From positions 10,826-74,825 of the IMG/VR virus record IMGVR_UViG_3300020418_000005: a stretch of DNA of 64,000 nucleotides, one strand, 5' to 3'. Under the pieces are notes generated by a model. The model searched no databases, was not told the origin of the DNA, and was given only the letters and a program-made list of their open reading frames with translations. The DNA comes from a virus. Each line of letters opens with the position of its first letter. Within the stretch, counting starts at the first letter, position 1. The position numbers were made by a program, and so were the translations under genes. Positions 20,401 to 55,322 of the stretch are shown piece after piece.

Positions 20401-23400
20401 TGGAGTTAATAATTTATTAGCACCAGCTGCTCCTACATCAACAGTAATAGTTTCAGCTGATGTTGCTATGATTGGAATAGATCTTCCAGAAACATAATCA
20501 ACTGATGCACGAGGATAAGTCTTTTGACTTTGATTACTATCCATCGTACATGTAAATGTAAGTGAATCATCAGCAATAACAATTCCTTCATCTATAGTTA
20601 AATTATGAGATCCAATAGTTAAAACTAATAGACCAGTTGCAGAATTATAAACAGCGTTTGTTGGAGTAAATGTTTGGTTTGCTCCTGCTACACCAACATC
20701 AACTGTGATTGTAGTTGTAGTTACTGCAGTTACAGGTCTATTATTACCAAATGCTGGTTGTCCTTCTTGTGGATAACTATGCTCTGTAACATTATTATCC
20801 ATCGCACAAGTCATTGTTAATGCATTTTCAGCAATTCTAACTTCATTAGATGTCGTTACGCCATGACCAGAACCAACTGTCAATTCTAATTCACCATTTG
20901 CTGGATTGTAAGAAGCATTTGTTGGAGATAATATTCCAGATGCAGCACTTGAAGTAGCATCAAGAAGTATATTCCAATCTTCAAACTTAGGAATAGGTGA
21001 TGAGAGTTGCGTTGGATTGTAAATTATGATTGTTCCATTAGTTACAGAACCTACGTATGTGTGAGCAACACCAGCAGCAGGACCTGCATCTCCAACATTA
21101 CATGTAATTGTTGTTGTAGTTCCGTTACTTACAAGGTTTGATATGTTAAAACTTTTTCCATAGGATGGATCTGTTTTTGCAGGACCAGGATGGTTTGCTG
21201 TTACACCGTTATATGTACATGAGAAATTAAGTGCCTCTTCTTTGAATGCGATTCTATCTCCAATCGAAACTGGAATCAAAGGAGCAGGGAATGAAACAGT
21301 TAATTCACCTGATGTAGAATTATATGTTGAGTTATTTGGTGTAACCTCTAATACGTTTCCATCAGTCCAGTTACGCATTGCTGCGATAGCATATACTTTT
21401 GCTCTTCCAACAGCATATAAAGTTGGTGCACGTTGTGCTTCTTGAACACCAGTTAATTGTGTTCCTGTAAAGTATGATTCAGCAGCAGTTAAAATACCAT
21501 CATTACCACCTAACACTAAGTCTCTAATTAGACCATCTAATATTTTTCTAACATCTCTACGACATTTTCTTTCTGATGTGTCATCAAGATTTAAAAATGG
21601 GAAGTAATTTACTGTATCACGTAATGCTTGATCTGCAATAAGAACTTTGTTTCTAGAAATTAGATATGCAGCATCTAGATATGTTCCACTAGCATTGTTA
21701 GCAATGACATCATTCCATAAGAATGCTAGAGTATCAATAGCAGATGTTACATCATTACAAGCATTTCCACTATTGTTAACACTACCATCTGCATTTAACA
21801 AAGCGGTATTTGTAATTACAGTGTCATCAAAGTATCTTGTTAGACTAGAATATTTTGGTGTATAGATTGGTTCTGTAGGAGTTCCAGTTCCAGTTCTCCA
21901 GTTTCTTACGCAATATATTGCTAACTGTCTAGCATATTCAATAGCACGAACATTTTCTATAATTTCATCATCAATATATGTTATCTTACCACCAACAATA
22001 TACTTCTGAGCACCTTCAATAATGTTATGGTTTGTACCAAATTCTAAGTCTCTTATAAGAGCGTTGATAAAGTGAATAACATCTTGCTTACATTGTGTAT
22101 CACCATCATCTCCTGATGCACTATATGCACTGTATGCAGGATATATTTTATTACCAGCACTACAGGATAGAGTCATTCCCTCTAGTTTTATGACATCATC
22201 TTCTGCTAATCCTGCTATGGGTGACGCAGTTGTAACAGTAGCATTACCTGTAACGATATTATCGTAAACAAAATTAGTTACATTAACAGTGGTTCCACCA
22301 AATGTTACTGTACCACCAGAAACATATGTGTGTTCTTGTCCAGTAAGTCCAACAAATATTTTAAATGTACTTCCAGAAATATCATAAACAGAATAATGGA
22401 ATCTTGCAAACTGATTATTAACCTCACCAAGAACTTCCTCAGCAATAAACTCTCTGTTGTTACGAAGGAATGTACAAGCGTCTTGGAATCTTCTTTCTAC
22501 AGGAGTAGATAGCGGGAAACTGTTTGGAGAGTTTAGAAGTGAAAGTGTAATAGACTTTGAAAAAGTTTTTACAACAGCAAATTGACCAGGATCTAGATTA
22601 CCATCTGTGATCGCTGGCATCTTTTTAGGAATTACAAATCGTCTGCAACGACCATCAGCATCTTCAATTACTTTGTAAATTCTTTGCTTACCATTTAATA
22701 CTGATAAATCAGGACTAGAAGTTGGTAGTCCTTCAATTAAAATTTCTTGACCTTCTTTAAACTCGTGAGTGTTATTTCTACCAACCAATGCGTTTGTATA
22801 GAATACAATACCACCTAAATCTTCTGCATTACCAAACTGTGCATTTTGAAAACCACCTTGAGCAATACTAGGATCACCTTGTAATGAGAAATCAATTCTA
22901 GAAATAGGTAATGATGAAACGTAATCTTCGTCAACAGATACAACTTCACCCTCAGCTCTAATTGATTTAAGAGAATTTGTATTTAAAGTATTGACTGTAG
23001 CATTTCCTGTAAAGGTTTCTATTTGTGCTGTGAATGCATTGTTCCAACCAGTAGCACCTAGAAGAGGTACAAATGTTACTTCCCATGCTGTAGGAGTGTT
23101 GACATCATTAGGTTCAATTAAAGCAACTTCGTAATATCCAGTTGATGCAGTAAATGCTGGATTACCAGCGTCGGAAAGATATACATATGTTCCTGTAGGA
23201 ATTGCACTTGTAGGATCTTGAGTATATGTAATTTTATTAGCAGCTGTTGTACCTGATGTTGTCAATGATTGTTGAGCACCAGTCGTAATTGAAACTACGT
23301 AATTAAATTGTTCACCTTCTACAAAAGAACCACTGACTAATTTAACATCAATAGTACCAGAGACATATGCACTAGCACCAGTTGTTTGAGCAAAATTAAC

Positions 23401-39246: not shown

Positions 39247-41061
39247 TTAGAATTCAATTACTAACTTGATATCTTCGATCTGGTCAGGTGCACGAGTAAT
39301 TAGTCTTCTATTCTCAACATAAATTACCTCACCTGAGTTATTTTCAATCTCAGGAGCAGCAAGTCCAGATGAGAATGTAACACCTAATAGTGTAGAACCA
39401 TATGAAGTATCTACGTTACCAGATGCAGTAGAAAGTTCTCCAGTAATTGCATTAGAACCATTAGACTCAAATGCTTTTACCACACCAGAATCTGTGTGTG
39501 CATCGTTTGTTTGGATATACTTAAGAACACCAGCAGTTGTAGAACCACTATCTAATGTCCATGATACAACTGTACCATACGCTGTACCACCAGTTACAGT
39601 CTGAGTAATTTTCTCATCAACTGTGTAATCTGCAGAAGCACCTGTGATCTTGATTGCTTTCAATCCAGATAATGTGTCAGCAGTAGCAAATGTTGTAGTA
39701 CCCCAGTTAAATGGATCTGAAATAATACCTATTCTACGGAAGTCGTTGTCTACAGGGAAGTCTCCAGAACCTTCAGAGTATGTAAGACGAATGTTAGTCA
39801 TAACACGCTTACCATTGAGTTCTACTTCTTGATCAGAACCATGACCACCTTCTGGAGCCATGACTACTTCAATAGCACCAACAGCAGAAGCACCAGTTGT
39901 TACAGCAGATGATAAACCAGCATTAGAGAATAGGTTACCATTTCCTAATAGTACGTTACCATAAGTGTAACCTGATCCACGTGCTTCGATCTCAGCAGAT
40001 GTGATTGTACCAGCACCATTTGTTACAAACTTAACCTTACCACCTGTTCCGTCACCTTTAATACTTGTGTATAGAGTCTGTGAAGCAGGAAGACCTGATC
40101 CAGCATTCTCAATAAGTGCAACATCAACTGCACCAGCAACAGCGATACCAGCAACTGCAGTTCTACTTACGTTAGCAGGAAGAACGATTGGCATAAAGTC
40201 TGATGAAAGGAACTTAAGAACATCATCAGTAGGGATAGTATACATATACTTCCAGATGTATCCTGCACCAGTTGACTCTGTGTAAAGACCAGTTGCTGAG
40301 TCATAGTTTCCACCAGCTACATATGGTTCTTCTGTTGCGTTCTGTCCTGTAGTGTTGCTAGGGTTCTCTCCATTATAGAGACACTTAAATACTTCGTAGT
40401 ATGAGTTCATTACATAGAACTTAGCTTCTGAAATGCTTGTAGCACCAGTTGCAGTTGATTTACCAATCTGTCCACCGCCACCAGGTGTAGCAGAGTAATC
40501 TGGTTTCCACATATCAAACTTGGGGTTAGCAACTAAATCCCAGTTATAACGGCGGATAACTGTTCTTGCAAAAGAATCAGTAATACGTTTGGCAGCAATT
40601 AATTCGTCGTATAGAGCAATCTTCTCTCTCTGATTATCTAGAGGAAGTGGTGGAACATCTTCTGTAGCGTAACGATATACACCAGAGACTGCTGTAGCAC
40701 CTGTGTCAGAACCACCAGATCCACCTGTTCTACCTTTTAATGCAGATCCTAGAGGAGGAGCAGAGTTAACACCATTACTTCCAAAAACGTCGGTTAATAA
40801 TAAAGCGGTGTCATATACTGCTGCAACTGTGGCACGAAAAGCAGTTGATCCATATGTACCCACATAGACTTCATTCCCGACCACGAAAGCCGTAGAGTTC
40901 TTGGTATGTATTTCCAGATATGCTTTCCACGGTTGTGGTCTACCCACAAAGAAATACATTCTTGATCTTTCCGCACTGGTGTCTGTCGCACCTTCGGTTA
41001 AAGATTCTAAAAATTGTTTAGCGTTAAAAATTCTAAACTTATCAGAGATAATAGCAGCCAT
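39247..41061 (-). CDS. g8: Baseplate wedge subunit gp8
   Basis: MAAIISDKFRIFNA, FYVMN..EVFKCL.N, YIWKYMYTI, NDFRRIGII.DP, YVENR..ITR..DQ.EDIKLVIEF. Confidence 0.85.
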   Translation of the reverse strand: MAAIISDKFRIFNAKQFLESLTEGATDTSAERSRMYFFVGRPQPWKAYLEIHTKNSTAFVVGNEVYVGTYGSTAFRATVAAVYDTALLLTDVFGSNGVNSAPPLGSALKGRTGGSGGSDTGATAVSGVYRYATEDVPPLPLDNQREKIALYDELIAAKRITDSFARTVIRRYNWDLVANPKFDMWKPDYSATPGGGGQIGKSTATGATSISEAKFYVMNSYYEVFKCLYNGENPSNTTGQNATEEPYVAGGNYDSATGLYTESTGAGYIWKYMYTIPTDDVLKFLSSDFMPIVLPANVSRTAVAGIAVAGAVDVALIENAGSGLPASQTLYTSIKGDGTGGKVKFVTNGAGTITSAEIEARGSGYTYGNVLLGNGNLFSNAGLSSAVTTGASAVGAIEVVMAPEGGHGSDQEVELNGKRVMTNIRLTYSEGSGDFPVDNDFRRIGIISDPFNWGTTTFATADTLSGLKAIKITGASADYTVDEKITQTVTGGTAYGTVVSWTLDSGSTTAGVLKYIQTNDAHTDSGVVKAFESNGSNAITGELSTASGNVDTSYGSTLLGVTFSSGLAAPEIENNSGEVIYVENRRLITRAPDQIEDIKLVIEF

Positions 41062-41101: not shown

Positions 41102-41121
41102 TATTTATACGTTTATTTATA
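41102..41121 (-). promoter_or_regulatory. Tandem T4-type late promoters TATAAATA upstream of g8
   Basis: tatttata at 41102-41109 and 41114-41121. Confidence 0.7.
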
Positions 41122-44100
41122 CGATTGATATAGGTACTATCTCAGATCCAGACGCAATCTGATTATCACCATTATGTCTAGTACAACCAGTGAAGCTGTT
41201 AGCAGTCTTACCAGTATACTTGATTATGCCAGTATATGTACCATTGTTATGTAAAAGATACCCTGTTGTTGGGAAGTAAGTTGTGTCTTGTACAACAATA
41301 TCTCCGCCAATAGTTCCTACTGTAGAACTAATAGCAACAGGATTTTGTATTGATGGTAGTGCAAGATTAAACTTATCTCCTGCCTTTGTAAAGGTAGATT
41401 TTGCTCTATCTACAAAGTCACCAAGAGTTAATGATGGGAAGTATGTTGATATATCAGAGATTGTTAGGTTAGATACATCACAGGTTCCATCATCAAATGA
41501 TATGTACTGCCAGTTTCCTATGTTAGGACCTACAGTAGTCTTAATGTAAGAACCGACATATTCGTTAGTTCCAAATTTTTCGTTTCTTATCTCAATAATT
41601 GTTCCATCACGTTGAGTAACAGTATAGTTACCAAGAGCATTCTCAATCAAATCAACTTGGTTTTGATTTCTCTGTTGTACAGGATCATTGATGAATGCTG
41701 TTTCCTCATAACCATCTATTGCACCGCCAGGTGGAGGTACGATAAGAACTTCTACTGCTTCCTTAGTAATTTCTAAATCACTAGGACTGGTTACTTGTCT
41801 CTGTACTTTTCTTTCAAATCCAGAATCAACAAATCCAATGTTAATCATCTTAACATCACTTTCAGACTCAACCTGTAGTAATCCAGCAGATATAACTGTT
41901 ACATCTTCAATCTGTCTGAGGTATGTTCCTGCAACCCAATCTTGTTCAGTAGTATTTTCATAACCTCTGATAATTTGATAGAATCTATCAGAAAGTTTCT
42001 TATTATAATAGACAATCTCATTACCAACCATCAATCTACCCATAGGAGCAAACTTAAATGTATCAGGAATGTAAGCGATGGTATCACCAATATTAAAGTC
42101 AAGATCCAAGTAAGCAGCATTCTCAAAGTAGTTAACATTGCTAATTGCATTGTTAGGAATCTCAATCTGTTGAGTTGCTGTGATTGCCTTAGATACAGTA
42201 GAAATAGAATTGAGAGATACAATATCTTGAATCTCTGCAGAGACAACAGTTGCTTCGTACGCAGGACCTTCAAAGACTTGTACATCAGCAGCTGCGGTTG
42301 GTCTATTAGTATTAATTTCTACATAATCTCTTTCTGGGTCTAATGCACCACCAATAGAGAATACCTCTATTTCATCAGGAGTAAACTCTCTTTCAAATTG
42401 AATCTCTGCACCACCATCAGGTGCTCTTACTGATAATGTACTAATACCTGTAATAGAACTAAGACCAGACTCATCAATCTCAGTAATGACTGAGAAAGCA
42501 CTCATTCCACCACTTTCAACAAATGGACTAACCGCTACATTGATTAAAGAAACACCAACTTCCCTATCACTTAGTATATCAAATCTTCTAGTTGTAATAA
42601 CTTTAGGTGCTTTAGTATATCCAGAACCACCATCAATAAGATCAACACTAATAACTTGACCTTTACTTACAAGAACATTTGCTCTTGCACCACCACCATT
42701 ACCATCTAATGATTCAAACTTAAGTACAGGAGGTGTGAAGTATTGATATGCAGTTGGTTGTGTAAGTGGATTATAACTACGCTGATTCCATGTAAGAGAT
42801 ATTACAGACCCATTTTCAATTTCTGCAACCACAGAAAGACCTTCTCCTCTCGTAATTCCAGTATAAGTCTCAACTGAGACTGCACCAAAGATATCATCAG
42901 ATGTTTGTTCATTAGGTCTTCCATCTTTACTGGTAGTTTCAGTAGGAAGTTTTTTGATTCTCCTAAATTTATCCTCACCTTCAACTCTAATATTATCTTG
43001 ATTAGAAAGATAAACAAAAGGTGCTTTATATGTTTTACCATAATTTGTTCCAGACCAATCAGCATTAGCATCTCTTAATATCTTTCTACCATCAGCATCT
43101 TTTTTAAAGTTTAAAATCTCATCTGCTATTTCTCCATCTGTTAGTACAAATGTATTATTATAGTTTCCTTTAGATGCAAATGTATAATCTAAACCAGCCT
43201 CTATATTAGAGTTATGGCATTTTAGAGTAAACACCACTGTATTTCCAGTTCTGATTGGATTTGTAATCTCACCAATTATATTTTTAGTATTATCTGCCCT
43301 TGTTTGCCAAACATGAATAGGATTACCAATTTTCTCATTCATCCAAGAATACTTAAGTAAAGTATCCATATTTTGTTGAGATGCAGTAAATGAGAATGTA
43401 CCTTGACCAAAATAAGAATCTGGTGCAAAATCATATATGTTTAATATTTGACCTACGTCTCTACCATAGAGATAACGTATATCAATTCTCATTTCTTTTT
43501 TGATAGAATCATGGAATGTGATGTTAGGACCTGATACTGTATATGCTTTTCCTTTTACTTGCAACACACCATCCAAGAACACATAGAGACTGTCTTCAGA
43601 TTCTATGTTTTGTACAGTCATATCTTCCACATCAAGAATTAAGAAAGGACCGTTTCTAACACCATCTACTAAATCAAAATCAATAGTAAGTCTCTTGTAA
43701 TTACCTACACCTATACCCACAACTTTTTCTACAGCAGTTGGTTCACCAATAGTCTTAGCACCTAAATCTTGATCCCATATAGGAGCAACATCAAATTTAA
43801 CTACGTTAGGAATAACAGTTCTATCAATCCAGTATGCGTCTTGTAAAGGATAATTTTCTGTAAACTTAGGTCTTTGTAATACAGAATTTATAGTCAAGAA
43901 TAAATCTTCATCCTCTTCTGTGTCTACTTCAGTATTATCATCCCAATATAATTCAAAATCTGTAGTCTCACCATCAATATAGTCAGGTAGACTTCTTGTT
44001 GTAGATTCTTCTTTGATAGTACCACTCAAATTATCGTATAAAGAATCCATCGCAGAGATTACAGTAGTACACTCTTCTGCAGGAAGTAAAGGATCACCAA

Positions 44101-47100
44101 GTATATTGTAATTAGAATATGTTACTGTGCCAGTCCAATTACCAGACTTATTCTGATTGACTGGTGTTTTCTCTATTAGACCACGCCCTTCTGTAAGGAT
44201 AGTATTGACAATACTATGGTATGTGTTAAGTGTACTCTCTACCTCTGCACATACAGGACTTAGTGAATCTACAATAGCATTGGGATCAGTGGTTGGTAAC
44301 TGGTTTCTCATTGCCTGTACCATTAGATCCTTAGCATAATTAAATGTCGCAACTGTCTCAGTTAGAGATCCAGTGATATAATATAATTCTTCTCCATAAG
44401 GATATTCTTTCTTCTGATAATATAACTGTGCTGCTTCTACAATTTTGAAGTTACCACCCATCTTAAGATGATACACATATGCGTCTAATATGAGACCAAT
44501 GTCTCTACCACATTTACTACTGATAGTTCCCCAGTTTAATGATGGGTACTGTGCTTGTGCCCATGCGAGTGATGTAGAAATAATATATGCTCTGTTAGAA
44601 CTAATCAATTGTCCTGCTTTATAGAACATACCTTTGTTCAATGCACTCCAACCAAACTTAGCTTGTGTTGTACCTGAGAAAGAAAGAGGTACTGTGACAG
44701 TTGCACCAGGTGGCACACTGAATGTAGATCCTAATGGAACTTGTGCAGTGCTAGTAGCAATAGAACCTGTGCTACCTGTTCCAGTTACAGGAGTGGTTCC
44801 TGCTGGAGCACCTCCACCACCACCAGAGTTTGCTAGTGCTGCATTGTTTAGTGTTATTTGAGTCTCACTATCAATAGATACAATCTTAGTTCCTGTTGGA
44901 TATGATCTACCAGAACTTACAAATAGACCAATAGCAAGATTCTTAGTGCTACTGACAGTCATTGTTTTCTGACCTTGAACATATTCAATGTTTACATCAA
45001 CAAAGTCCCAGTTTCTAATTGCAAGTTTTGCTAACCTAGTTGCGTATTCAAATATGTCATTAGACTCTGTTTTATAATTCCTGATGTAAAGATAGGCACT
45101 ACCAGAACTAAAGATAGATGCATAATCAATAGTTTTAACATTACCACCAAATCTTATATCATGTTGATAAGCATCTAAGATTGCTCTGATGTTTGCTTCA
45201 TAGTCATCTTGTTTTGTTGCCCAATCTAATGATGGGTGTGTCGCTTTACCATATCCAACAGTCTCATTAACAATAAACTGCACATTTCTTTCTATTTGAT
45301 TTGCAGCATCAATCCATGTTCCACCACGTTGGAATATATTTCTTACTTTTTTGAAGTATTTTGTGTTATATTGTTCTTCTTTAAATTTAAAGACCTTACC
45401 ATAGAAAGTAACACCAGCAAGAGGTGGTTGAGAAAATACAATACTTCCAGAACTTAAACTATATGCAACGCCAGGTTCTTGTATAACTCCGTCAAGAGTT
45501 ACAATCATATTTTTTTGTTTGTTGTCTGCTAGATTAAATGCTACACCATCTTTCTTAGTAGTGAATGTTGTAGTTCCTTGTAATCTTCCATCATTATCAA
45601 AATAACCATCAAATGATGCATCAAGTGTAAATTCAAATATCTCTGCTTCATTAAAATTAAAGTCACTTGTTGCTGCAGTACCAAAACCTTTACGTATTCT
45701 TTGGTTCTCTATTTTTTGTACAGTTTGTGTAACAGTTCTTCTAGAATTCTCAACTGTAATCTTATTCTTATCAGGATCCCATAATTGTACAACACTAAAA
45801 TGTGATGAGTCAGGAATACGTTTCTTAGGTAACTCAACTAAAGAACCTTGATCTGTTGTTTCTAAATTAGCAGTTGCTTCAAGATCTACTTGACCAAATA
45901 GTTTAAATCCAGCAGGGTGTGTAGTAGCTTTAATTAAATCACGCCACTGTTCAATAGATGTTCCTGATTTTATAACATAAGAATAGTCTTGATAGAATGT
46001 GCTATCCAATATCTTTTGATTTTGTACACCTAGTTTTCCTTTGTCTGATTGATAGTAACCTAAGTTATCATAGAAACTAGAAATCTCTTCATTAAATGTA
46101 GTTACAAAAACAGATTGAACAATTCCTGATACAGGCATCAATACAGATTCTATAGAAATGTTTTGACGAATGATGCCAGTAGAATTTGCTACCTTAAGTA
46201 AGTTAGATCCAAATCTCCATTCTACTACTGTTGCTCTGAATACTTCTACACCATTAATTTTTTGTACTACTTGCTCACCAATTCTAAAATTACCATTATA
46301 ATCTCTAAGAGAAAGAACATAGTTAGAACGGAATGTAGATGATACAGTTTCATCTAAGTGGAATGCTCCACCATTAGATGTTATCCTTACACTTTGTGGT
46401 ACACCTATAGTAGTGCTTTCTGCATATGCTTCGACATCACCTTCCACAATGAGAATTTCTGGTGCATATGTGTATCCTTTACCTGTTTTTTCTACAGTGA
46501 TAGATGTAACTTTTCCATCTCTAACTAAAACTTTGAACTTTGCGTCTGCACCATCTGATTTAGTAACTACAATTTTAGGATTTACATAGTTAGATCCTTC
46601 ATTTGTAATGTCTACTCCTGTTATTGTCTGAGATGCTGTATCAAATAATACAGTCGCTGTTGCTCTGTAAGATTCATTAGGATCAATACCAGTAATAATT
46701 GGAACTTTTTTATAATTGAGTCCTAAATTTATGATGCTGACCTTATCAATCTTACCGATAGCAAACTGACCAGTAGTAGTGTAAGAAATGGATCCAGAAC
46801 CATCCCATAGAGGAGTGTTGATAACATCATAAACGAAACGATTTGGTGTAACATAATTGATAGTCTTAGTTCCTTGTAGAGGATCAGTTACTATTTTAAA
46901 GTATGCTCCTTCTGCATTTACTACATTCTTATTATCAAAGTAATAGAAGTTTGTAAAATCTGTTCCAACTTTTGTTTGGTAGTTATTAGTAGCAAGTCTA
47001 GAACCAAATCCAAACTTAACATCTGTAAATGCACCAGAGTTGCCAGGTAATACAGTAGATTCTAATTTCTCTACTGTAATTAAATTGTAGTTTCTACTTG

Positions 47101-50100
47101 GACTAATATCAAAGTAAGTCCCAGTGAGACTAGAATGAGACGTATCAAACTTATATTTGTAAAATTCTTGTAGATCTATGTTAGGGTTAGGTACAAATGT
47201 ACTATTGTCTTCTGAGAATTCAAATTTGTATACTACATCTTCAGCAGATCTAACAGAAACTAATCTTTGTGGTGAACTTGTATCAAAGAAACTAGAACTT
47301 AATACAACCTTATTTGCATTAGTGTTCAATGTTGCATAATCATATACAATGATTATCTTATGTGTTACAGGATCATATGATTGTATGTAACCTGATAATG
47401 AACCAGTAAAAATCTGATAATTGTTTGTGAAGTTATATTGAGCTTTGTAAAGAGATACTTCTTGTCCATCAAAATGATCTACATCTGTAGTTCCTTCTTG
47501 TCCTCTTATTACAGAAATATCATTTGCATTAATACCAGAAATTTTTAAAATTTCTTGACCTATTTGTATAAGATCATTTTCTGCAAATCCTTGTGCACTA
47601 TCTACAGTAACTTTTGTTGCACCAGCAGCAATACCAACATGTCCAACATATAGAGTTAATCTTGCTGTTGATGTAGATGCACCAGACCTTACTAGATCTT
47701 CATCAGCAACTGATAGATAATCACCCTGTGCATATCCAACACCAGCATCTTGTATCTGTATGTCAGAAATTACCCCTGCATCAGAAACAGTAAAGATAGC
47801 AGTTGCTCCAGATCCCGATCCACCAGTAAGAGCAACACTAGTGTAAGTACCAGCTGTATAGTCAGCACCACCATTAAGGACTTCATATCTTCCTATTCCT
47901 GTAAAATTAATTTTTGTTTTTGCACTAGGAGGTAATAAAATTGCCTCTTGATATAACCTCTTTCTTACATAGTAATTTTTGGTTTTAGTATTATCATTAG
48001 GATTAATTTCTATATCTACATTATCTCCAATTCCTAATCCATGTGGTGATGTTGTTTCTATTAAAGCAACACTTTGATTAACTTCAAACGGATTTAATCC
48101 ATCACTAAGAGATGTAAGTCTTACAATTCTAGTTCCAGAAGTATTGAACAAATCACTAGACTGTAAGAAATAATTATCATCTACAATCCATGTACCTGTC
48201 AAAACCTTGATCTGGACTACGTTTTGAGCAGAAGTTCCTTCTAATACCTCAGCAGTTGCAATAGGTGCATTGACACCATCAGTCAAACTTAATGTAGCAC
48301 CTTTTGTATAAGAACTTCTTTGATCTAGTAAAACATCAAATGTCTTAATTGCAGCAGAGAATGTACCAGTATTATCAAACGTACCAGTTACATTTTTTAG
48401 TACAATTGTACTATCATTCTTAACTGTACCAACAATAGAACCAAATGCACCAGATGAAGGTTGAGTTAATGTATCATCTGCAAACAAATATGCATTTTGA
48501 ATAACTGTTAACTTAACAACCTTATCTTCTTTTGACTGTAAGTAGGATACAGTTTTACCTTTTACAGAAGATATAATTGCTTCTGCTTCTGAACCTTGTG
48601 TTCCTGTATTATCAAAATATACTTGTGAATTTATAGAGAAGTTAGCAGAAGAATCTACTACTCTAACACTTTCCACATTACCCTGTTTTACTTCTTCTAT
48701 TTGTGCAAGGAATCCATCTCCATTACGTGGCATTCCTGCTTGGTAAAAACGTCTTGCTTTTTTAGGAATATCGTTTTGATTGATATTAGAATTGTAATTA
48801 CTATCAACAGGTAACGAGTAAAAATTCTCTCCTAGAATGTATGGATATTGCGGTACTTGATTGCTATCAATAGTAAGGAAATAAGCATAAGTTCCTTGCG
48901 GAAAGTCTGGGGTAATACAAAATCTTCCATTGTTTTCATCTAGTGTGCCACTTTTGTGGGTATAGGTATAGTCATTGACAAAAGTTCCAATAGGATATCT
49001 TGTCAAATCAGGTCCTTCAGAACGATTACCATTGATAGAATAACTAGATGTCATTCTAATAATAGATGACGTAGAATCTAAAGGATTCTCATAACCAAAC
49101 GCACCATATATTGGATTGCCATCATATGCAAAACCAATTATAGGTGAGTGTGATTTAGATGCTGGTTCTGTTCCAGCACTGTTTATATTGTCACTGAGTG
49201 AGACACGAAGTGCTTTCGGGTTTGCAGCATAACCATAACCATATTCTAGTACGTTATTATAGTTATCAAATACATAACCGTTTTCTGTATCTAGTTTAGA
49301 CTCTAATTTTTTGTATCTATTGAAATTCCATTCTTTAAGAAGAGGTATACCAGTCGCTCCATTACCTACTGGAACTATGTCAACTATTACAGTATCTTGA
49401 CTATAGAAATTACCTTCTGCAATTTTATTAAAACCAGTAATCTGTCCATCAGTATTGACTATTGCTTCAAACTCAGCAAATCTACCTCTACCAGCATTAT
49501 CTCTAATTTCAATTTTTGGAGGAGAAGAATAAAACTCACCAGCATTATCAAGTATTAGACTTGTTACCTTACCACCAGTAACCACAGCACGAACAGCAGC
49601 ATTTCTACCAGATGTAATTATTATATCTGGAGTTCTAGGAAATACATCACTGGTGTCTACAGTTATGCTTTCTACGACCTGTCCTGCTAATATTGCTCTT
49701 GCTTTATTAGGCACTTGATCTATCAATACAAAAGGTGGTCTTACATATCCAGTTCCACGAAGATCAACCTTGATTTGTTCTAACTTACCATATCTAATGC
49801 TTTCTGGATCTTTGTAACCATAGAAAGGTACACCATTTAATCCAATACCAACATCTCTTTTAGGTGTGGGATATGTTTCTGTAGTTCTAGTTGCTTGCTT
49901 TCTAATAATACGAAGAAGTTTCTGATCTAATACTGTTTGATTGACAACAGAACCATCTAAAATTTTATGTGATGGAAAACTAGAACTAGCAATATAATAA
50001 TACTGATCGTCAGCAAGTATAGCAGATACATTTGTTGATACTTGATCTAATGATGTAGAGACTGCTGGTAACGTGGGAACATTAACTGCATTACCAGTTC

Positions 50101-52108
50101 CTAGTATCCATCTAGTCTGGTTTGTACCTACATTTACAATTTTAGAATCAGAAGTTTCAAAACCAGGATTTGATACTTGTATCTTATCTCCTACAGCAGA
50201 GTATGGATGTGAATCTGATGGTTGTAAATTATATACAATACCCATTGTCAACAATGTGACACCAGAACCACTGATGGTCACTGGTTTGTATACTGGTGTA
50301 CCAACATCATGCTGTACAGCACTAAATGCTGATCTATTGTCTATAATAAATTGATTTACAGTCTTATCACTAAATGTAATTGTTTCATTACCTATTAATA
50401 CTGATCCTGTAGTATCCCAACCAATAGTAGAGAACACATCAACTCTATCTCCTGTTGATGCAGTTCCTGTTAATACTTTCTCAAGTTGAGTCTTAGTTGA
50501 GACACCAAATGTACCATTAACTGTTTCTGATGCTAAAACTATGTTATAGATTATTTCACCATCTCTAGTTCCATCTGCATATACGTTATCTACAACAGCA
50601 TCTGCATAGTCATATTCTTCTGTATCAGACTGAACAATTCTCTTTCCTATTAAACTTTTTACATCACCAGATACAACCTTACACTTTAGTGCATATACAT
50701 TTATCCAATCTGCATTAGATGATTTGTATGTAAAGTCTCTTGGTTTATATACCTCAGGTTTTATAATTTTTCTTGGTCTTGTATTAGCAACCAACTCCAT
50801 ATAACCTTCATCACCATCAAGACCTGACATGTAGCGATGATAAGCACAATAATAGTAAATCTTATTAGACTCATCAACATCCATCATGAACTCTGGTTGG
50901 AATTCATTATCGTAGTTTGTCTTAACTCCAAGAACAGGTTTGCTATTGTAATATAACTGACCACCAAGTAATGTACCTTCTCTAGTGGTACTAAACTTCA
51001 TAGGATGACCATCTGGATGGATAGGCATTGGCAAGTTAGAAGGGTCAGATTGATTCCATATAATTTGCCAGTTTTGGAAGATCCTTATTCCTTCTGGTGC
51101 AAAATAATATTTGCCATATTCAAAGTTACCAAATAACTGTGGTAATTTACCAAAGTTAATGTAGAAAATACCATTAGGGAATGTGTATACTGTACTAGCA
51201 GTAAATGTTGATCCTGTAGGACCTGTAACACTATCTCCAAGACTAAAACTGTTTGATACTTGTCTTAGATATACTCTTGTTATTTCGTTCTGATCATTTC
51301 TAACAACCTTTGCAATTTCACCACTAGCACCAGTTGTTTTAATTCTTTCACCAACTACAAATTGACCATTTGGACTTGTAACGTCTATAGCGATATTATC
51401 AAACTCAGATTTTATAAACCATTCAAATTGTGCTAGATTGGTACGATCAAGAGGATCAAAGTCTTTATCAATAAGACTATTAAAAATAAATTTAATAGAA
51501 CTATCAGTTCCTTTTGCCTTATAAAAATTCTGTATGTTTTTTATTAAGGTTCTCTTATCAACACTCTCTCTAAGATATTTCTCAGGAAAAGAACCTAGAT
51601 ACTGTTTCTCAAAATTCTTGACAAACGCATATAAGAAAAGATTACTGATATTGTAAACTTTTTGACCAGCAACATGTGCAGATGCAGTTGTAGTCTCAAA
51701 TTGAGTCTCATGATACAAATCACCAAGTTTTGTGTTACCACTAACACCTCGTGTGCAACCTTGTAGTGTAGTATCAGTTCTAGTTGCGTAAAATATTATC
51801 TCATCATCTATTCTGATATATCCTTCTGCCTTTGGAAAACTCGTTGCATCTTGTAATACAATTGTGTCGCTAGTATCAGTGATACTAACATCCAAAGTAT
51901 CAAACTGTCTAAGTAAGTTTTGTTCATAGTAATCAATGTCTGCGTATTTTTGAAGATTGCTAATAACATCTAACGTACCACCCTGTACCTCCTGATGCTC
52001 GTAATACTTTTCTACGAACTTAGTAAAAAGTTCATATTCTGTACTAATAAACTCAGGAAGTTGAGTCTCAATTAGAGTCGAGATTCGCTTTGTCTTAGCA
52101 ACAACCAT
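41117..52108 (-). CDS. g7: Giant baseplate wedge initiator gp7-like protein (3663 aa) with many inserted domains
   Basis: ISTLIETQLPEFI, NFYKAKGTDSSIKFIF, HSPIIGFAYDGNPIYG (YHYH-like), DSTFYQDYSYVIKS...HPAGFKLFG; located between g6 and g8. Confidence 0.82.
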   Translation of the reverse strand: MVVAKTKRISTLIETQLPEFISTEYELFTKFVEKYYEHQEVQGGTLDVISNLQKYADIDYYEQNLLRQFDTLDVSITDTSDTIVLQDATSFPKAEGYIRIDDEIIFYATRTDTTLQGCTRGVSGNTKLGDLYHETQFETTTASAHVAGQKVYNISNLFLYAFVKNFEKQYLGSFPEKYLRESVDKRTLIKNIQNFYKAKGTDSSIKFIFNSLIDKDFDPLDRTNLAQFEWFIKSEFDNIAIDVTSPNGQFVVGERIKTTGASGEIAKVVRNDQNEITRVYLRQVSNSFSLGDSVTGPTGSTFTASTVYTFPNGIFYINFGKLPQLFGNFEYGKYYFAPEGIRIFQNWQIIWNQSDPSNLPMPIHPDGHPMKFSTTREGTLLGGQLYYNSKPVLGVKTNYDNEFQPEFMMDVDESNKIYYYCAYHRYMSGLDGDEGYMELVANTRPRKIIKPEVYKPRDFTYKSSNADWINVYALKCKVVSGDVKSLIGKRIVQSDTEEYDYADAVVDNVYADGTRDGEIIYNIVLASETVNGTFGVSTKTQLEKVLTGTASTGDRVDVFSTIGWDTTGSVLIGNETITFSDKTVNQFIIDNRSAFSAVQHDVGTPVYKPVTISGSGVTLLTMGIVYNLQPSDSHPYSAVGDKIQVSNPGFETSDSKIVNVGTNQTRWILGTGNAVNVPTLPAVSTSLDQVSTNVSAILADDQYYYIASSSFPSHKILDGSVVNQTVLDQKLLRIIRKQATRTTETYPTPKRDVGIGLNGVPFYGYKDPESIRYGKLEQIKVDLRGTGYVRPPFVLIDQVPNKARAILAGQVVESITVDTSDVFPRTPDIIITSGRNAAVRAVVTGGKVTSLILDNAGEFYSSPPKIEIRDNAGRGRFAEFEAIVNTDGQITGFNKIAEGNFYSQDTVIVDIVPVGNGATGIPLLKEWNFNRYKKLESKLDTENGYVFDNYNNVLEYGYGYAANPKALRVSLSDNINSAGTEPASKSHSPIIGFAYDGNPIYGAFGYENPLDSTSSIIRMTSSYSINGNRSEGPDLTRYPIGTFVNDYTYTHKSGTLDENNGRFCITPDFPQGTYAYFLTIDSNQVPQYPYILGENFYSLPVDSNYNSNINQNDIPKKARRFYQAGMPRNGDGFLAQIEEVKQGNVESVRVVDSSANFSINSQVYFDNTGTQGSEAEAIISSVKGKTVSYLQSKEDKVVKLTVIQNAYLFADDTLTQPSSGAFGSIVGTVKNDSTIVLKNVTGTFDNTGTFSAAIKTFDVLLDQRSSYTKGATLSLTDGVNAPIATAEVLEGTSAQNVVQIKVLTGTWIVDDNYFLQSSDLFNTSGTRIVRLTSLSDGLNPFEVNQSVALIETTSPHGLGIGDNVDIEINPNDNTKTKNYYVRKRLYQEAILLPPSAKTKINFTGIGRYEVLNGGADYTAGTYTSVALTGGSGSGATAIFTVSDAGVISDIQIQDAGVGYAQGDYLSVADEDLVRSGASTSTARLTLYVGHVGIAAGATKVTVDSAQGFAENDLIQIGQEILKISGINANDISVIRGQEGTTDVDHFDGQEVSLYKAQYNFTNNYQIFTGSLSGYIQSYDPVTHKIIIVYDYATLNTNANKVVLSSSFFDTSSPQRLVSVRSAEDVVYKFEFSEDNSTFVPNPNIDLQEFYKYKFDTSHSSLTGTYFDISPSRNYNLITVEKLESTVLPGNSGAFTDVKFGFGSRLATNNYQTKVGTDFTNFYYFDNKNVVNAEGAYFKIVTDPLQGTKTINYVTPNRFVYDVINTPLWDGSGSISYTTTGQFAIGKIDKVSIINLGLNYKKVPIITGIDPNESYRATATVLFDTASQTITGVDITNEGSNYVNPKIVVTKSDGADAKFKVLVRDGKVTSITVEKTGKGYTYAPEILIVEGDVEAYAESTTIGVPQSVRITSNGGAFHLDETVSSTFRSNYVLSLRDYNGNFRIGEQVVQKINGVEVFRATVVEWRFGSNLLKVANSTGIIRQNISIESVLMPVSGIVQSVFVTTFNEEISSFYDNLGYYQSDKGKLGVQNQKILDSTFYQDYSYVIKSGTSIEQWRDLIKATTHPAGFKLFGQVDLEATANLETTDQGSLVELPKKRIPDSSHFSVVQLWDPDKNKITVENSRRTVTQTVQKIENQRIRKGFGTAATSDFNFNEAEIFEFTLDASFDGYFDNDGRLQGTTTFTTKKDGVAFNLADNKQKNMIVTLDGVIQEPGVAYSLSSGSIVFSQPPLAGVTFYGKVFKFKEEQYNTKYFKKVRNIFQRGGTWIDAANQIERNVQFIVNETVGYGKATHPSLDWATKQDDYEANIRAILDAYQHDIRFGGNVKTIDYASIFSSGSAYLYIRNYKTESNDIFEYATRLAKLAIRNWDFVDVNIEYVQGQKTMTVSSTKNLAIGLFVSSGRSYPTGTKIVSIDSETQITLNNAALANSGGGGGAPAGTTPVTGTGSTGSIATSTAQVPLGSTFSVPPGATVTVPLSFSGTTQAKFGWSALNKGMFYKAGQLISSNRAYIISTSLAWAQAQYPSLNWGTISSKCGRDIGLILDAYVYHLKMGGNFKIVEAAQLYYQKKEYPYGEELYYITGSLTETVATFNYAKDLMVQAMRNQLPTTDPNAIVDSLSPVCAEVESTLNTYHSIVNTILTEGRGLIEKTPVNQNKSGNWTGTVTYSNYNILGDPLLPAEECTTVISAMDSLYDNLSGTIKEESTTRSLPDYIDGETTDFELYWDDNTEVDTEEDEDLFLTINSVLQRPKFTENYPLQDAYWIDRTVIPNVVKFDVAPIWDQDLGAKTIGEPTAVEKVVGIGVGNYKRLTIDFDLVDGVRNGPFLILDVEDMTVQNIESEDSLYVFLDGVLQVKGKAYTVSGPNITFHDSIKKEMRIDIRYLYGRDVGQILNIYDFAPDSYFGQGTFSFTASQQNMDTLLKYSWMNEKIGNPIHVWQTRADNTKNIIGEITNPIRTGNTVVFTLKCHNSNIEAGLDYTFASKGNYNNTFVLTDGEIADEILNFKKDADGRKILRDANADWSGTNYGKTYKAPFVYLSNQDNIRVEGEDKFRRIKKLPTETTSKDGRPNEQTSDDIFGAVSVETYTGITRGEGLSVVAEIENGSVISLTWNQRSYNPLTQPTAYQYFTPPVLKFESLDGNGGGARANVLVSKGQVISVDLIDGGSGYTKAPKVITTRRFDILSDREVGVSLINVAVSPFVESGGMSAFSVITEIDESGLSSITGISTLSVRAPDGGAEIQFEREFTPDEIEVFSIGGALDPERDYVEINTNRPTAAADVQVFEGPAYEATVVSAEIQDIVSLNSISTVSKAITATQQIEIPNNAISNVNYFENAAYLDLDFNIGDTIAYIPDTFKFAPMGRLMVGNEIVYYNKKLSDRFYQIIRGYENTTEQDWVAGTYLRQIEDVTVISAGLLQVESESDVKMINIGFVDSGFERKVQRQVTSPSDLEITKEAVEVLIVPPPGGAIDGYEETAFINDPVQQRNQNQVDLIENALGNYTVTQRDGTIIEIRNEKFGTNEYVGSYIKTTVGPNIGNWQYISFDDGTCDVSNLTISDISTYFPSLTLGDFVDRAKSTFTKAGDKFNLALPSIQNPVAISSTVGTIGGDIVVQDTTYFPTTGYLLHNNGTYTGIIKYTGKTANSFTGCTRHNGDNQIASGSEIVPISIV

Positions 52109-52112
52109 TTAC

Positions 52113-53909
52113 TTACTCTTTATATGCAGTGAAGGATGAATTAGCAACGTCAACGTCAAGGTATACCTCACGCATTGCTTTGATATCATTAGAAAGGGGT
52201 TTTACTCTTAGTGAAATACGATTATCAAAGAAACTTCCTTTAATAATTGTTAAGGCATACATCTTTAACTCACCTTTTACATAATCTATGTCGCCAATAT
52301 CGCTGTCAAGGACAACCTTTTCACCAGTTACGCTATCTAGTCTATATAGGACAATTTTCTTATCCCTATCCTCAACGTAAACATCAAAATTAGGATATTC
52401 AGTTACCCTAAAACCAGTAGATGACAATACAGGATCATCACAGTCCTCATCAAAGGCATTTTGGAAACATACCTCGTAATAGAATGTAGAATTTAACTGT
52501 GGGTAGAAGTCTTTTCTCATTATGACACTGGTGAGATTAGAATTGATACTCACATCAGCATCATCTATTACACCAACAAATTTACTATACCTAAACTTGC
52601 CATTAAACTTCTCAGTATCACTTATATCAATATAAGACTGTATACTAGAAATTGTCTTATCTCTAATTTGTGCTGGTCTTTGATCAGTCATACCACCATT
52701 GTAAAAAATCTTACTTGTCATTTCAATATACAAAATAGATGGATCTACAATCTGTGGTTCTACAGATGCAACAACATACTTCTTAAGATCACTAACAATT
52801 TGTGATTTTGTTAATGATGTAAGGTAACTTGCGTCATTTGGTTTTAATACAATGAATACTTTTCCATATTGTGGAGGATCCTGATCCTCTCCACCAAATA
52901 TAATGATATCACTTGTTGCTGGATATACTTTTCTTACAATTGCTTCATAGTCCTGTGCGGTCACTGCACGGTCTTGTGTGCCATATGCTTTTGGAGCAGT
53001 GTATTTTATCTTAGAAGTACTTTCTACTGCTTCACCACCCGAAGAGGCAGTGCTTGATGTAACTGTAGTTGTAAAAGCGTTAGGACTTACACCATTTGGA
53101 TTTTGTACAACACCAGTAAAGACAAATGTCTTAACTCCATTACTTTCAGGACCTGAAGTTGTAACATATGATACTTCAACACGTGAGTTGTTTGAAACTT
53201 TCTTACCTAATACACCATCTCCTAGTAGTATTTCATATCTTTGATCTTCAATCTCATCCACAAAGAATACTTTTGAGTCACCATCAACACCTAAAATGTT
53301 ATCAGCAACTTTATATTCCTCATTAAATGTGCCACCGCCAGGATATACCTGTACTCTAATTGTATTAGTATCAATATCTTGATTATCTAAAATAAATCTT
53401 TGACTCTTAATAGCACTGTTAACAGTAAATGTATTAGTAAGAAGTGTACCTTCTCTAATAGGAACATTAGTAAATGTAGCAACATTATTCACAACTTGTC
53501 CTGTAACATCATCAGTTACAATGTAAGAATAGATGTTGTTATCATATGAAGAAACAAAACCAGTTCCTGCCTGTAATATTAACTCAGTGTCAGTTGTTGC
53601 ATTAGTATAGTTAATATTAAAAGAAACATATGCTATAGGTGATGTTGCTGATTTAGGTCTATATCCTAACTGCTTTGCTATCGCTACTACATTGTCTCTC
53701 AACGTTGCTGAATCAATGAACATCTCATTGACTACCATATTGGTATTGAACGCTGTGTAGTAAGTGTTATAAGCGAGTGTATCAATTATAGTTGCTAATG
53801 CACTACCTTCAAAATCATAGTCAGTAAAATCTGACTGCGATCTCATATACTCTTTGAGAGAAACTTTTATCTGTTCAAAATCTAAATTGGATACCTGAGT
53901 GTATGGCAT
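52113..53909 (-). CDS. g6: Baseplate wedge subunit gp6
   Basis: LDFEQIK, FTDYDFEGS, LAYNTYY, AKQLGY.PKS, QDRAVTAQDYE. Confidence 0.93.
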   Translation of the reverse strand: MPYTQVSNLDFEQIKVSLKEYMRSQSDFTDYDFEGSALATIIDTLAYNTYYTAFNTNMVVNEMFIDSATLRDNVVAIAKQLGYRPKSATSPIAYVSFNINYTNATTDTELILQAGTGFVSSYDNNIYSYIVTDDVTGQVVNNVATFTNVPIREGTLLTNTFTVNSAIKSQRFILDNQDIDTNTIRVQVYPGGGTFNEEYKVADNILGVDGDSKVFFVDEIEDQRYEILLGDGVLGKKVSNNSRVEVSYVTTSGPESNGVKTFVFTGVVQNPNGVSPNAFTTTVTSSTASSGGEAVESTSKIKYTAPKAYGTQDRAVTAQDYEAIVRKVYPATSDIIIFGGEDQDPPQYGKVFIVLKPNDASYLTSLTKSQIVSDLKKYVVASVEPQIVDPSILYIEMTSKIFYNGGMTDQRPAQIRDKTISSIQSYIDISDTEKFNGKFRYSKFVGVIDDADVSINSNLTSVIMRKDFYPQLNSTFYYEVCFQNAFDEDCDDPVLSSTGFRVTEYPNFDVYVEDRDKKIVLYRLDSVTGEKVVLDSDIGDIDYVKGELKMYALTIIKGSFFDNRISLRVKPLSNDIKAMREVYLDVDVANSSFTAYKE

Positions 53910-54301
53910 TATCTTGTACGCTCTAGAAAGAAGTCTACCGCCACTGGTCTGTCGTCTCTACCTACAATTTTGTACTGCATTTCAACATTGTAACCGTTGT
54001 TATCAAAATCAACTTCACAATAAATTTTTTGTACTCTTACTCTTGGTTCATACTTATTAATACATTTTGCAATCTCTTGTTTTATCATTGCAGCAGAACC
54101 ATAGTCTAATGGTTCAAACAACATATCCTGTAAACCAGAACCTAAGTTAGGTTGAAAAGGTCTTTCACCCTTTTTAGTCATTAATAAGTTTGTTATAGAC
54201 TGTGCAATCGCAGACTTATCCTTCACTGAGACAAGATCGTCAGTAACAGGATGTTTTTTGAATGTAACACTCAAATCTTTGAATGTCTGGAACGATGGCA
54301 T
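53909..54301 (-). CDS. g25: Baseplate wedge subunit gp25
   Basis: AIAQSITNLLMTKKGERPFQPNLGS..LFEP..YEPRV; ATAAATA site at 54325-54331. Confidence 0.93.
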   Translation of the reverse strand: MPSFQTFKDLSVTFKKHPVTDDLVSVKDKSAIAQSITNLLMTKKGERPFQPNLGSGLQDMLFEPLDYGSAAMIKQEIAKCINKYEPRVRVQKIYCEVDFDNNGYNVEMQYKIVGRDDRPVAVDFFLERTR

Positions 54302-54327: not shown

Positions 54328-54507
54328 TTATCCACCTTTTCTGAACTTAGTGCACTCGTCAAGGAATTCCTTCTTTCTCTTCATCTCAAACAATTCTCTT
54401 TCGTCATTCTTCTCAATCTTATCTAACCACTCCTGTGCATCGTACTCAGAGATGAGTTTCTTACCACTTTTCTTAAATTCTTCAGATTTGTCTACTTTAA
54501 TTACCAT
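54328..54507 (-). CDS. Hypothetical protein (MVIKVDKSEEF...); start moved to 54507
   Basis: AGGAG Shine-Dalgarno-like sequence upstream of this ATG. Confidence 0.7.
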   Translation of the reverse strand: MVIKVDKSEEFKKSGKKLISEYDAQEWLDKIEKNDERELFEMKRKKEFLDECTKFRKGG

Positions 54508-55153
54508 TTGTTTTCTCCTTAGGTGTTTCCCAGAAATAATCATCGGTATCTCCTAACCGCCCCCACTCAGTCCCATTCTCGACCTGATACTCTATGGTAG
54601 AAACCTTAAAGTCTGGTGTCTTAGGATGTTGTGGAGTGATAGAGAGGTCATACAGACGCATCCTGTTGTTAGGATACAATGCATACTGTCCATTCTCTAG
54701 TTGGATACAATTATGACTCTTATGCTCTTGTGGCACTTCGCTTACATTATTATCTATCACATCAGGATTCGCATGGTAGTTATCAAGAGTAAAAATATAT
54801 TGCCCTTTCATCAGACCATGGTCTCTTGTCCGTATCTCCGCATCCATAGAAGATATGAAACCTTTATTGATTGCCATCACACCATAATCCATACAATTCC
54901 AAAATTGCAGATTCTCTAGACTCATATCGGGCGTCGGCGTTTTCGGTGCTCGGAGAAAGGCACTTATAGGAAGTTTATCATACATCGCACCATACTCAGG
55001 TAAGTACGTCTCAAAATAAAAAGCACGACCAGGTATACTTTTACAAGCAACCCAGACGCCCTCGACAAACTCACCAAATCCACTTTGATGGTCAGTCAAA
55101 TATTCTTTACGTACCCACACCTTCTCAGAAGGCAAATTACAGATCAGATTCAT
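54497..55153 (-). CDS. Conserved cyanophage hypothetical protein (MNLICNLP...); start moved to 55153
   Basis: VWVRKEYL.DH..G.GEF, GAMYDKLPISAF, HKSHNCI.L.NGQYALYPNNR. Confidence 0.8.
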   Translation of the reverse strand: MNLICNLPSEKVWVRKEYLTDHQSGFGEFVEGVWVACKSIPGRAFYFETYLPEYGAMYDKLPISAFLRAPKTPTPDMSLENLQFWNCMDYGVMAINKGFISSMDAEIRTRDHGLMKGQYIFTLDNYHANPDVIDNNVSEVPQEHKSHNCIQLENGQYALYPNNRMRLYDLSITPQHPKTPDFKVSTIEYQVENGTEWGRLGDTDDYFWETPKEKTNGN

Positions 55154-55322
55154 TAGTCGTAACAATCCCACTTTTATGATGAAATACCTCAACATACGCT
55201 TGACATTTCGGACAAGTGAAGTTAGACCAGAAGTCATACTCAGACTCGTCACCATCATTTAAGTCTTCTACGGAGTGATCTCCACCCCATATCAATTCAG
55301 TTCCACAGTGCCAACAGTTCAT
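55137..55322 (-). CDS. Small zinc-ribbon protein
   Basis: CWHC...CPKC. Confidence 0.7.
   Translation of the reverse strand: MNCWHCGTELIWGGDHSVEDLNDGDESEYDFWSNFTCPKCQAYVEVFHHKSGIVTTNESDL

Follow-up and report, generated by a model that had tools for sequence, protein, structure and literature searches.

How a viral baseplate protein comes to carry what reads like the pigment-binding helix of a phycobiliprotein is the question raised by a locus in IMG/VR record IMGVR_UViG_3300020418_000005. The stretch analyzed here (the window; 64,000 nt, positions 10,826 to 74,825 of the record) makes up most of a 74.8-kb viral contig with an estimated completeness of 39%. An earlier note, made from the letters alone, had placed two nested phycobiliprotein-like domains at 44015-45310, inside a minus-strand gene that it called gp7. 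Phycobiliproteins are familiar from the light-harvesting antennae of cyanobacteria and certain algae, and literature searches found no paper on phycobiliprotein-like domains in phage virion proteins. Our analysis indicates that both modules very probably have a phycobiliprotein-derived fold. They belong to a cyanophage-only repeat family that builds giant baseplate and fibre proteins.

The segments on which the argument turns all lie in one open reading frame (ORF). They are listed with the evidence for each, where HMM is hidden Markov model, E is expectation value and pLDDT is the predicted local distance difference test score.

41117..52108, minus strand: giant gp7-type baseplate wedge / virion structural protein of 3663 aa (P0001); ORF, PHROG matches and gene position
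44954..45325, minus strand: outer phycobiliprotein-like domain, N-terminal part, aa 2262-2385, about helices A/B to G; family HMM positions 8-130, E 5.7e-24
44657..44953, minus strand: insert between the outer N-terminal part and the inner domain, aa 2386-2484, a beta-rich stretch and a Gly/Thr-rich linker; sequence and a low-pLDDT model
44132..44656, minus strand: inner phycobiliprotein-like domain, complete, aa 2485-2659; family HMM positions 1-176, E 2.6e-58
44501..44515, minus strand: K-C-G-R-D motif of the inner domain, aa 2532-2536; HMMER and hhalign registers
44249..44251, minus strand: codon of Cys2620, at the start of the inner domain's last helix, candidate equivalent of beta-Cys155; invariant in orthologues
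44003..44119, minus strand: predicted closing C-terminal helix of the outer domain, aa ~2664-2702, with Cys2680 (codon 44069-44071); weak HMM piece (positions 123-159) and model helix

The resemblance to phycobiliproteins is clearest in the inner domain. Its K-C-G-R-D corresponds to Lys83-Cys84-x-Arg86-Asp87 of C-phycocyanin alpha in both registers, and 11 of the 21 residues of the alpha-phycocyanin helix-E motif are identical in the HMMER register, in keeping with the near-textbook motif described before. A phmmer search of the 462-aa region against PDB sequences gave only C-phycocyanin alpha chains (E 0.65), with C2533 falling on Cys84. A profile built from 14 orthologues gave 19 PDB matches, 18 of them phycobiliprotein alpha subunits (E 0.1-1.6). 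For profile–profile comparison, the cpcA and cpcB genes out of 80 cyanobacterial loci were used. The inner-domain alignment matched phycobiliproteins with an hhalign probability of 92.4% (E 5.2e-7), and 642 full-length copies of the family matched cpcA/cpcB with a probability of 93.8% (E 1.7e-7); the 93 aligned columns span helices A/B to G. Reversed-sequence controls gave E 0.17 and 0.37. This profile comparison, akin to the HHpred check that the earlier note had proposed, agrees with a relationship to phycobiliproteins. The family scored better against alpha subunits (E 1.2e-7) than against beta subunits (E 8e-4). Multi-copy relatives of the window protein also exceed the cut-off of the Pfam phycobiliprotein family PF00502 (22.2 bits), among them P0098 (44.8 bits) and a 4759-aa tail protein of phage S-WAM2 (49.4 bits). 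The latter passes the cut-off, yet such isolate proteins are annotated 'tail protein' or 'structural protein'. As judged from these comparisons, the resemblance exceeds chance, and the ancestor appears to have been a phycobiliprotein most like the alpha subunit.

The predicted structure points in the same direction. An AlphaFold2 model of the inner domain was all-helical, with a pLDDT of 74.8 and a predicted template modelling (TM) score, pTM, of 0.77, from a 20-row alignment. When it was compared by Foldseek with 350,542 PDB chains, phycobiliproteins occupied all listed rows except that of 8u0f_C, a bacterial fluorescent protein; the listed matches had E 0.03-0.16, probability about 1 and TM up to 0.61. 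VIA-align against 48,161 representatives placed phycoerythrin beta first (5aqd_M; Z 14.3, root-mean-square deviation (rmsd) 2.7 Å, 142 aa), then the bilin-binding domain of ApcE (4xxi_A; Z 13.8, rmsd 2.1 Å) and then allophycocyanin. The structural comparison suggested earlier thus favours a globin/phycobiliprotein fold. By fold, these three are the closest relatives; by sequence the closest is C-phycocyanin alpha (CpcA), which has the helix-E motif K-C-x-R-D-[IVL]-G-[YFL]...Y..L..G-G in the same register. Sensor globins (globin-coupled sensors, the RsbR N-domain, pXO2-61) have the same fold (Z 11-12.4) but are only 7-10% identical. They act as self-contained sensing modules joined to other domains; their ligands are haem or fatty acids and not bilin, and the CxRD motif of the inner domain is missing from them. 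No sensor-globin chain or family was among the PDB or Pfam sequence search matches of the gp7 region or profile. PDB sequence searches found no solved structure of the phage domain family.

The outer domain has diverged further. In its N-terminal part a tyrosine stands at the Cys84 position and the Arg-Asp pair is replaced (DYEAN; Tyr-Glu-Ala-Asn), and its PF00502 matches (E 0.012 and 0.0027) are both under the cut-off. The motif segments of the two domains still match each other (tblastn E 1e-13, 31% identity), and by sequence inner and outer domains are paralogues. Spliced and compared with the family end to end, the outer domain gave an hhalign probability of 98.9% (E 3.6e-17); the closing helix alone had no significant similarity to the family (hhalign probability 1%). 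A predicted helix at aa 2677-2699 (residues 428-450 of a 476-aa nested model, mffaa2061f148) carries C2680. Several globin chains align over residues 10-455 of this model, with 114-134 aligned residues and Z about 10.5 for the best two. In the model the last helix would therefore pack back onto the first part, closing the outer domain. Nesting of the inner domain within the outer is probable; we grade it no higher because the 476-aa model, built from a 23-row alignment, is of low confidence (pLDDT 55). A fibre-type ORF of 3457 aa elsewhere in the window (14449-24822) is built in the same manner, its domain copies being interrupted by insertions after about HMM positions 43 and 130. Within the insert of gp7 itself (44657-44953, minus strand), a run of five glycines is followed by a Gly/Thr/Pro/Ser-rich stretch, and short strands are predicted; the glycine run is kept in gp7 orthologues.

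At the level of residues the earlier note is confirmed. The motifs that it quoted are all in the 3663-aa ORF where it had put them, at aa 2267-2322 (outer) and 2497-2552 (inner), and so are the three cysteines, C2533 (44512-44510), C2620 (44251-44249) and C2680 (44071-44069), for which it gave the low ends of the codons. Its picture of two nested domains is upheld by the spliced-domain match and by the globin chains that span the nested model, and the outer domain has indeed lost the Cys84 equivalent while retaining C2680, which is invariant in orthologues.

How widespread is this domain? Searched against 1.84 billion proteins, an orthologue profile matched 1041 protein clusters formed at 50% identity; 288 of these had E < 1e-30, and giant proteins made up nearly all of the 150 clusters listed. 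A single protein may hold up to 37 copies, at a median spacing of 154 aa, that is, back-to-back. With one copy as tblastn query against 50,697 phage records, 348 records matched, all of them cyanophages. The phage profile had only weak matches (E 0.008-0.16) in five cyanobacterial genomes, each of them to an ORF about as long as a phycobiliprotein (171-193 aa); the one match that could be placed lies in the cpcA locus.

Though homologous to phycobiliproteins, the phage domains have diverged and are no ordinary subunits. The globin-type helices A/B to H of phycobiliproteins are common to the inner domain. Phycobiliproteins pair alpha with beta through an N-terminal X-Y hairpin and the Asp13/Arg93/Tyr97 contacts. 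The phage domains lack the hairpin: alignments begin at phycobiliprotein position about 35-40, and the median repeat spacing leaves no space for the hairpin. The phycobiliprotein-invariant Arg93 is replaced by an aspartate (Asp58) in 79% of phage copies. With the hairpin gone and Arg93 replaced, alpha-beta pairing and disc assembly are not expected. Unlike cellular phycobiliproteins, the phage domain is virus-encoded and is embedded, tandemly repeated and nested within virion proteins of 3000-7000 aa. It has invariant residues of its own, Asp63, Asn69 and Tyr79 (conserved in 97%, 83% and 95% of the family, respectively), and insertions in the B-E and G-H loops, which also bear insertions in phycobiliproteins such as ApcE and phycoerythrin beta. 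The simplest history would be that a host phycobiliprotein gene was captured by an ancestral cyanomyovirus, lost its X-Y hairpin and was then massively duplicated.

Does the phage domain still have a pigment site? In phycobiliproteins the bilin is attached through a thioether at Cys84, while its propionate and pyrrole nitrogens are held by Arg86 and Asp87; all three residues are invariant in our cpcA/cpcB alignment (A5). The inner domain has K2532-C-G-R-D2536 in register with Cys84-Arg86-Asp87, whereas the outer domain lacks these residues. The consensus of the motif over about 1400 copies is K(56%)-C(97%)-x-R(94%)-D(99%)-x-G(80%), in sequences otherwise about 25-30% identical. Exactly one cysteine, that of CxRD, is present in 426 of the 642 full-length copies (66%), and about 21% have a cysteine in the C-terminal third. 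An intradomain disulfide is thereby ruled out as the cause of the cysteine conservation, since most copies have a single cysteine, and the earlier argument against a simple disulfide of this kind is strengthened. The three site residues vary together. Where the cysteine is present, the arginine is kept in 95.5% of copies and the aspartate in 100%; where it is absent, these values drop to 44% and 69% (Fisher p 1e-18 and 4e-20). Asp63, a structural residue, is retained in nearly all of the Cys-less copies. Cysteine, arginine and aspartate thus appear to behave as a unit, the pattern expected of a ligand site, and it is mainly on this pattern that we give covalent bilin binding by the inner domain, the best supported of the mechanisms weighed, about an even chance.

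Conservation of the cysteines within gp7, a check also proposed earlier, was examined in two sets. In 23 metagenomic orthologues C2620 and C2680 are invariant and C2533 nearly so, and among seven isolates (39-62% identity) C2620 and C2680 occur in 7/7 and C2533 in 6/7. Phage Sf-CH1b (L042) and a metagenomic relative (L026, 3001-3567) are natural 'site-minus' variants: K-C-x-R-D of the inner domain is replaced, with C, R and D lost together, and both C-terminal cysteines are kept. The metagenomic one also has extra insertions. The label '155-type' for the C-terminal cysteine is less secure. In the two-Cys subfamily, which includes the window gp7, the second cysteine falls on beta-Cys155 only in greedy/global hhalign and at low posterior confidence, so that the label is plausible but not established. 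The same low-confidence alignment puts a conserved aspartate near the domain start on the beta-Asp39 position.

These observations suggest how a pigmented baseplate could arise. During assembly in the pigment-rich host cytoplasm, the inner module would be loaded covalently with a bilin at Cys2533, and a second bilin might be attached at Cys2620. Loading could be spontaneous or could depend on host lyases or on the phage lyase CpeT. The inner module would be the one most likely to be loaded because it keeps the thioether cysteine and the Arg-Asp pair; the outer module, having lost its Cys84-type site, would serve as scaffold.

The distribution of cpeT bears on the loading step. The gene was present in 8 of the 10 domain-bearing phages tested. 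It has been reported in more than 60% of T4-like cyanophages, and clusters A and B carry only T-type lyases (PMC10665884). In S-WAM2 and S-RSM4, the giant tail gene that carries the repeats is preceded by cpeT on the same strand, about 1.3 kb upstream. We regard this proximity as only a hint. The gene order (S-WAM2 13000-36000 and S-RSM4 158000-181000; L184 and L185) is cpeT, a cluster of five tRNA genes, a small putative endonuclease-type gene and the giant tail protein (4759 and 4482 aa, respectively), and it is the same in two different genera. A search of the 75-kb, 39%-complete source contig did not find cpeT, and a search of five related genomes found bilin reductase (PF05996) in none of them. 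The cyanophage bilin genes cpeT, ho1, pebS and pcyA, which are regarded as auxiliary metabolic genes for the host antenna, occur in the same phages, with cpeT near the giant tail gene. Their products are enzymes with a presumed host phycobiliprotein target, whereas the phage domain is structural. In the study of Gasper et al. 2017, the complex of phage CpeT with its bilin reportedly showed no direct handover to the beta subunit of the host, in which case the true acceptor of CpeT may lie elsewhere.

A pigment on the virion could also matter for adsorption. Phages S-PM2 and P-HM1/P-HM2 need light to adsorb, whereas P-SSM2 and the podovirus P-SSP7 adsorb in the dark (PMC6628666). That paper gives the cause of the light dependence as unknown; it suspects host receptors or phage tail fibres and finds that host photosynthesis is not needed (PMC6628666). 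We found 12 domain matches in S-PM2 and five in P-HM2, two of the latter in gp7. P-SSM2 and P-SSP7 gave no domain match, with either the phage profile or PF00502. In these four phages, then, the presence of the domain goes with the adsorption phenotype as a virion photoreceptor would predict. A pigment might make the baseplate or fibres light-responsive, which would explain light-dependent adsorption. Light-gated adsorption through pigment-bearing modules is speculative, and we hold it to be rather doubtful. The whole proposal, in which cyanomyovirus particles would bear covalent bilins on baseplate or fibre modules as a virion photoreceptor gating adsorption or baseplate triggering, and in which CpeT would at least partly load these modules rather than the host antenna, is in our judgement unlikely as it stands.

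Whatever the fate of that proposal, a diverged branch of the phycobiliproteins has become a structural repeat of the apparatus with which viruses infect phycobiliprotein-containing hosts, and its pigment-binding residues are under strong selection. If the repeats do bear bilin, the virus particle would have a built-in candidate photoreceptor, the first of its kind; light-dependent cyanophage adsorption would gain a concrete molecular candidate, and the phage lyase CpeT, a puzzle so far, a new acceptor. Without bilin, the repeats still show clearly how a photosynthesis protein of the host was made into building material for virions. Pigment carriage and light sensing by a virus particle can now be tested.

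Several points weigh against a pigment-bearing phycobiliprotein module. The window gp7 itself falls under the PF00502 cut-off (16.0 and 13.3 bits versus 22.2), and its inner domain has a histidine where 97% of the family has Asp63. The alignment behind the inner-domain model is shallow and the pLDDT moderate. Helical models, moreover, may reach Z about 14 in VIA-align from arrangement alone; because Z by itself may thus mislead, our claim of a phycobiliprotein fold rests on the agreement of fold, profile and register. The chromophore is a prediction from sequence and model, and our literature searches found no report of pigmented cyanophage particles. Two phages, ACG-2014d and P-SSM7, have the domain and no CpeT match, so the phage lyase is not obligatory. 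Where cpeT does lie near the tail gene, this may merely mirror syntenic cyanomyovirus gene order, and a tRNA cluster stands between the two. Finally, the match with the adsorption phenotype covers four phages, one of them a podovirus, and carries no conclusion.

The most serious alternative to a pigmented module is that the captured host gene was reused without pigment, purely as a compact and stable helical module that lengthens baseplate and fibre proteins, with Cys, Arg and Asp kept for folding or packing. We think this less probable than bilin binding but well worth entertaining. Back-to-back arrays of up to 37 copies would suit it, much like the immunoglobulin (Ig)-like or other spacer domains of phage fibres, as would the loss of the X-Y hairpin and of the Arg93 contact and the lack of reports of pigmented virions in the literature searched. 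The outer domain of the window protein and about 3% of copies, moreover, work without the cysteine. Packing does not readily explain, however, why a lone unpaired cysteine should persist in 97% of copies that are otherwise about 25-30% identical, or why arginine and aspartate relax specifically upon loss of the cysteine while structural Asp63 stays, a pattern that again looks like a ligand site. The cysteine might instead have been kept for other chemistry, such as disulfides between subunits or domains that would hold the fibre together, the sensing of redox state, or the binding of a metal or another ligand in the former bilin cleft. Virion proteins do meet an oxidising environment, each repeat offers one cysteine, and the gp7 region has three conserved cysteines, an odd number. 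But Cys84 sits inside the cleft in phycobiliproteins (as known generally from their structures), a poor place for interdomain disulfides; a disulfide would leave the coupled Arg-Asp pair without a role; and the family profile shows no conserved His/Cys cluster of the metal-binding type. We consider such chemistry improbable.

Least probable by far is that an unrelated helical bundle came to resemble phycobiliproteins, CxRD motif included, by chance or convergence. In its favour, single-sequence matches are weak (E 0.65 in PDB, E 0.012 in Pfam), and helical models often yield middling Z scores. Profile–profile comparison speaks otherwise (E 1.7e-7, versus 0.17-0.37 for reversed controls), as do the relatives that exceed the Pfam cut-off. 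Sequence and structure searches independently place phycobiliproteins first, in the same register, and the family is confined to viruses of phycobiliprotein-containing hosts.

The protein that holds the two domains is gp7, as it was named before. All large genes of the window are on the minus strand and make up the structural module of a T4-like cyanomyovirus. The 3663-aa ORF matches phrog_4406 (virion structural protein) and phrog_2885/phrog_708 (baseplate wedge), and its homologue in Prochlorococcus phage P-HM2 is annotated gp7. We make the assignment on these matches, on that annotation and on the flanking genes, which give the order gp25-gp6-gp7-gp8:

53909-54301, minus strand: gp25 baseplate wedge gene, upstream of gp7; Pfam GPW_gp25, and PHROG phrog_219/phrog_261 for the gp6 and gp25 pair
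52113-53909, minus strand: gp6 baseplate wedge gene, upstream of gp7; PHROG phrog_219/phrog_261 for the same pair
39247..41061, minus strand: gp8-type baseplate wedge gene, downstream of gp7; phrog_438, E 7e-174

Gene position and PHROG baseplate wedge matches are common to T4 gp7 and its enlarged cyanophage homologues ('VrlC', 'virion structural protein'). The window gp7 is about three times the size of T4 gp7 and, unlike it, bears YHYH and phycobiliprotein-like inserts. Pfam reported neither kind of insert elsewhere in the window gp7 or in the 3457-aa neighbour. The YHYH domain (PF14240, E 1.5e-29; aa 958-1086, window 48851-49237) is the sole Pfam family above threshold across the whole window gp7. 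Beside gp25, a 253-aa ORF (54497-55258, minus strand) had been suspected to encode a bilin reductase. This was not supported: the ORF matches PHROG 3704 'ferredoxin' (auxiliary-metabolic category, E 9e-116) and has no Pfam match.

The fibre-type neighbour carries further members of the repeat family, located with the family HMM:

21316..22509, minus strand: further copies in the 3457-aa fibre-type ORF (14449-24822)
21316-21702, minus strand: copy with KCRRD, E 1.3e-26
21691-22110, minus strand: copy with QCKQD, E 1.2e-18
22390-22509, minus strand: domain piece, E 7.9e-6

Three entries in the wider family set deserve comment. The 7-repeat protein P0098 / P0162 is filed at NCBI under a Candidatus Nanopelagicaceae metagenome-assembled genome, on contigs of 2-5 kb. 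Of five viral records tested that carry relatives of P0098 (relatives L043-L063), one (G001) has psbA and another (G003) two Photo_RC (psbA/psbD-type) genes. Given these genes, P0098 probably sits on a cyanophage contig that was wrongly binned as Nanopelagicaceae. In the first of these records (the one behind L063; 186 kb, 96% complete), psbA was matched in three pieces (G001:C1:171043-171916), with TGA and TAG inside two of them, and may be an intron-split or broken gene. Lastly, the 186-aa family database protein P0145 starts MCIRDR and ends ...IHISEPTRPY; these ends resemble translated sequencing-adaptor sequence, and we take them to be a read-end artefact around a true domain fragment.

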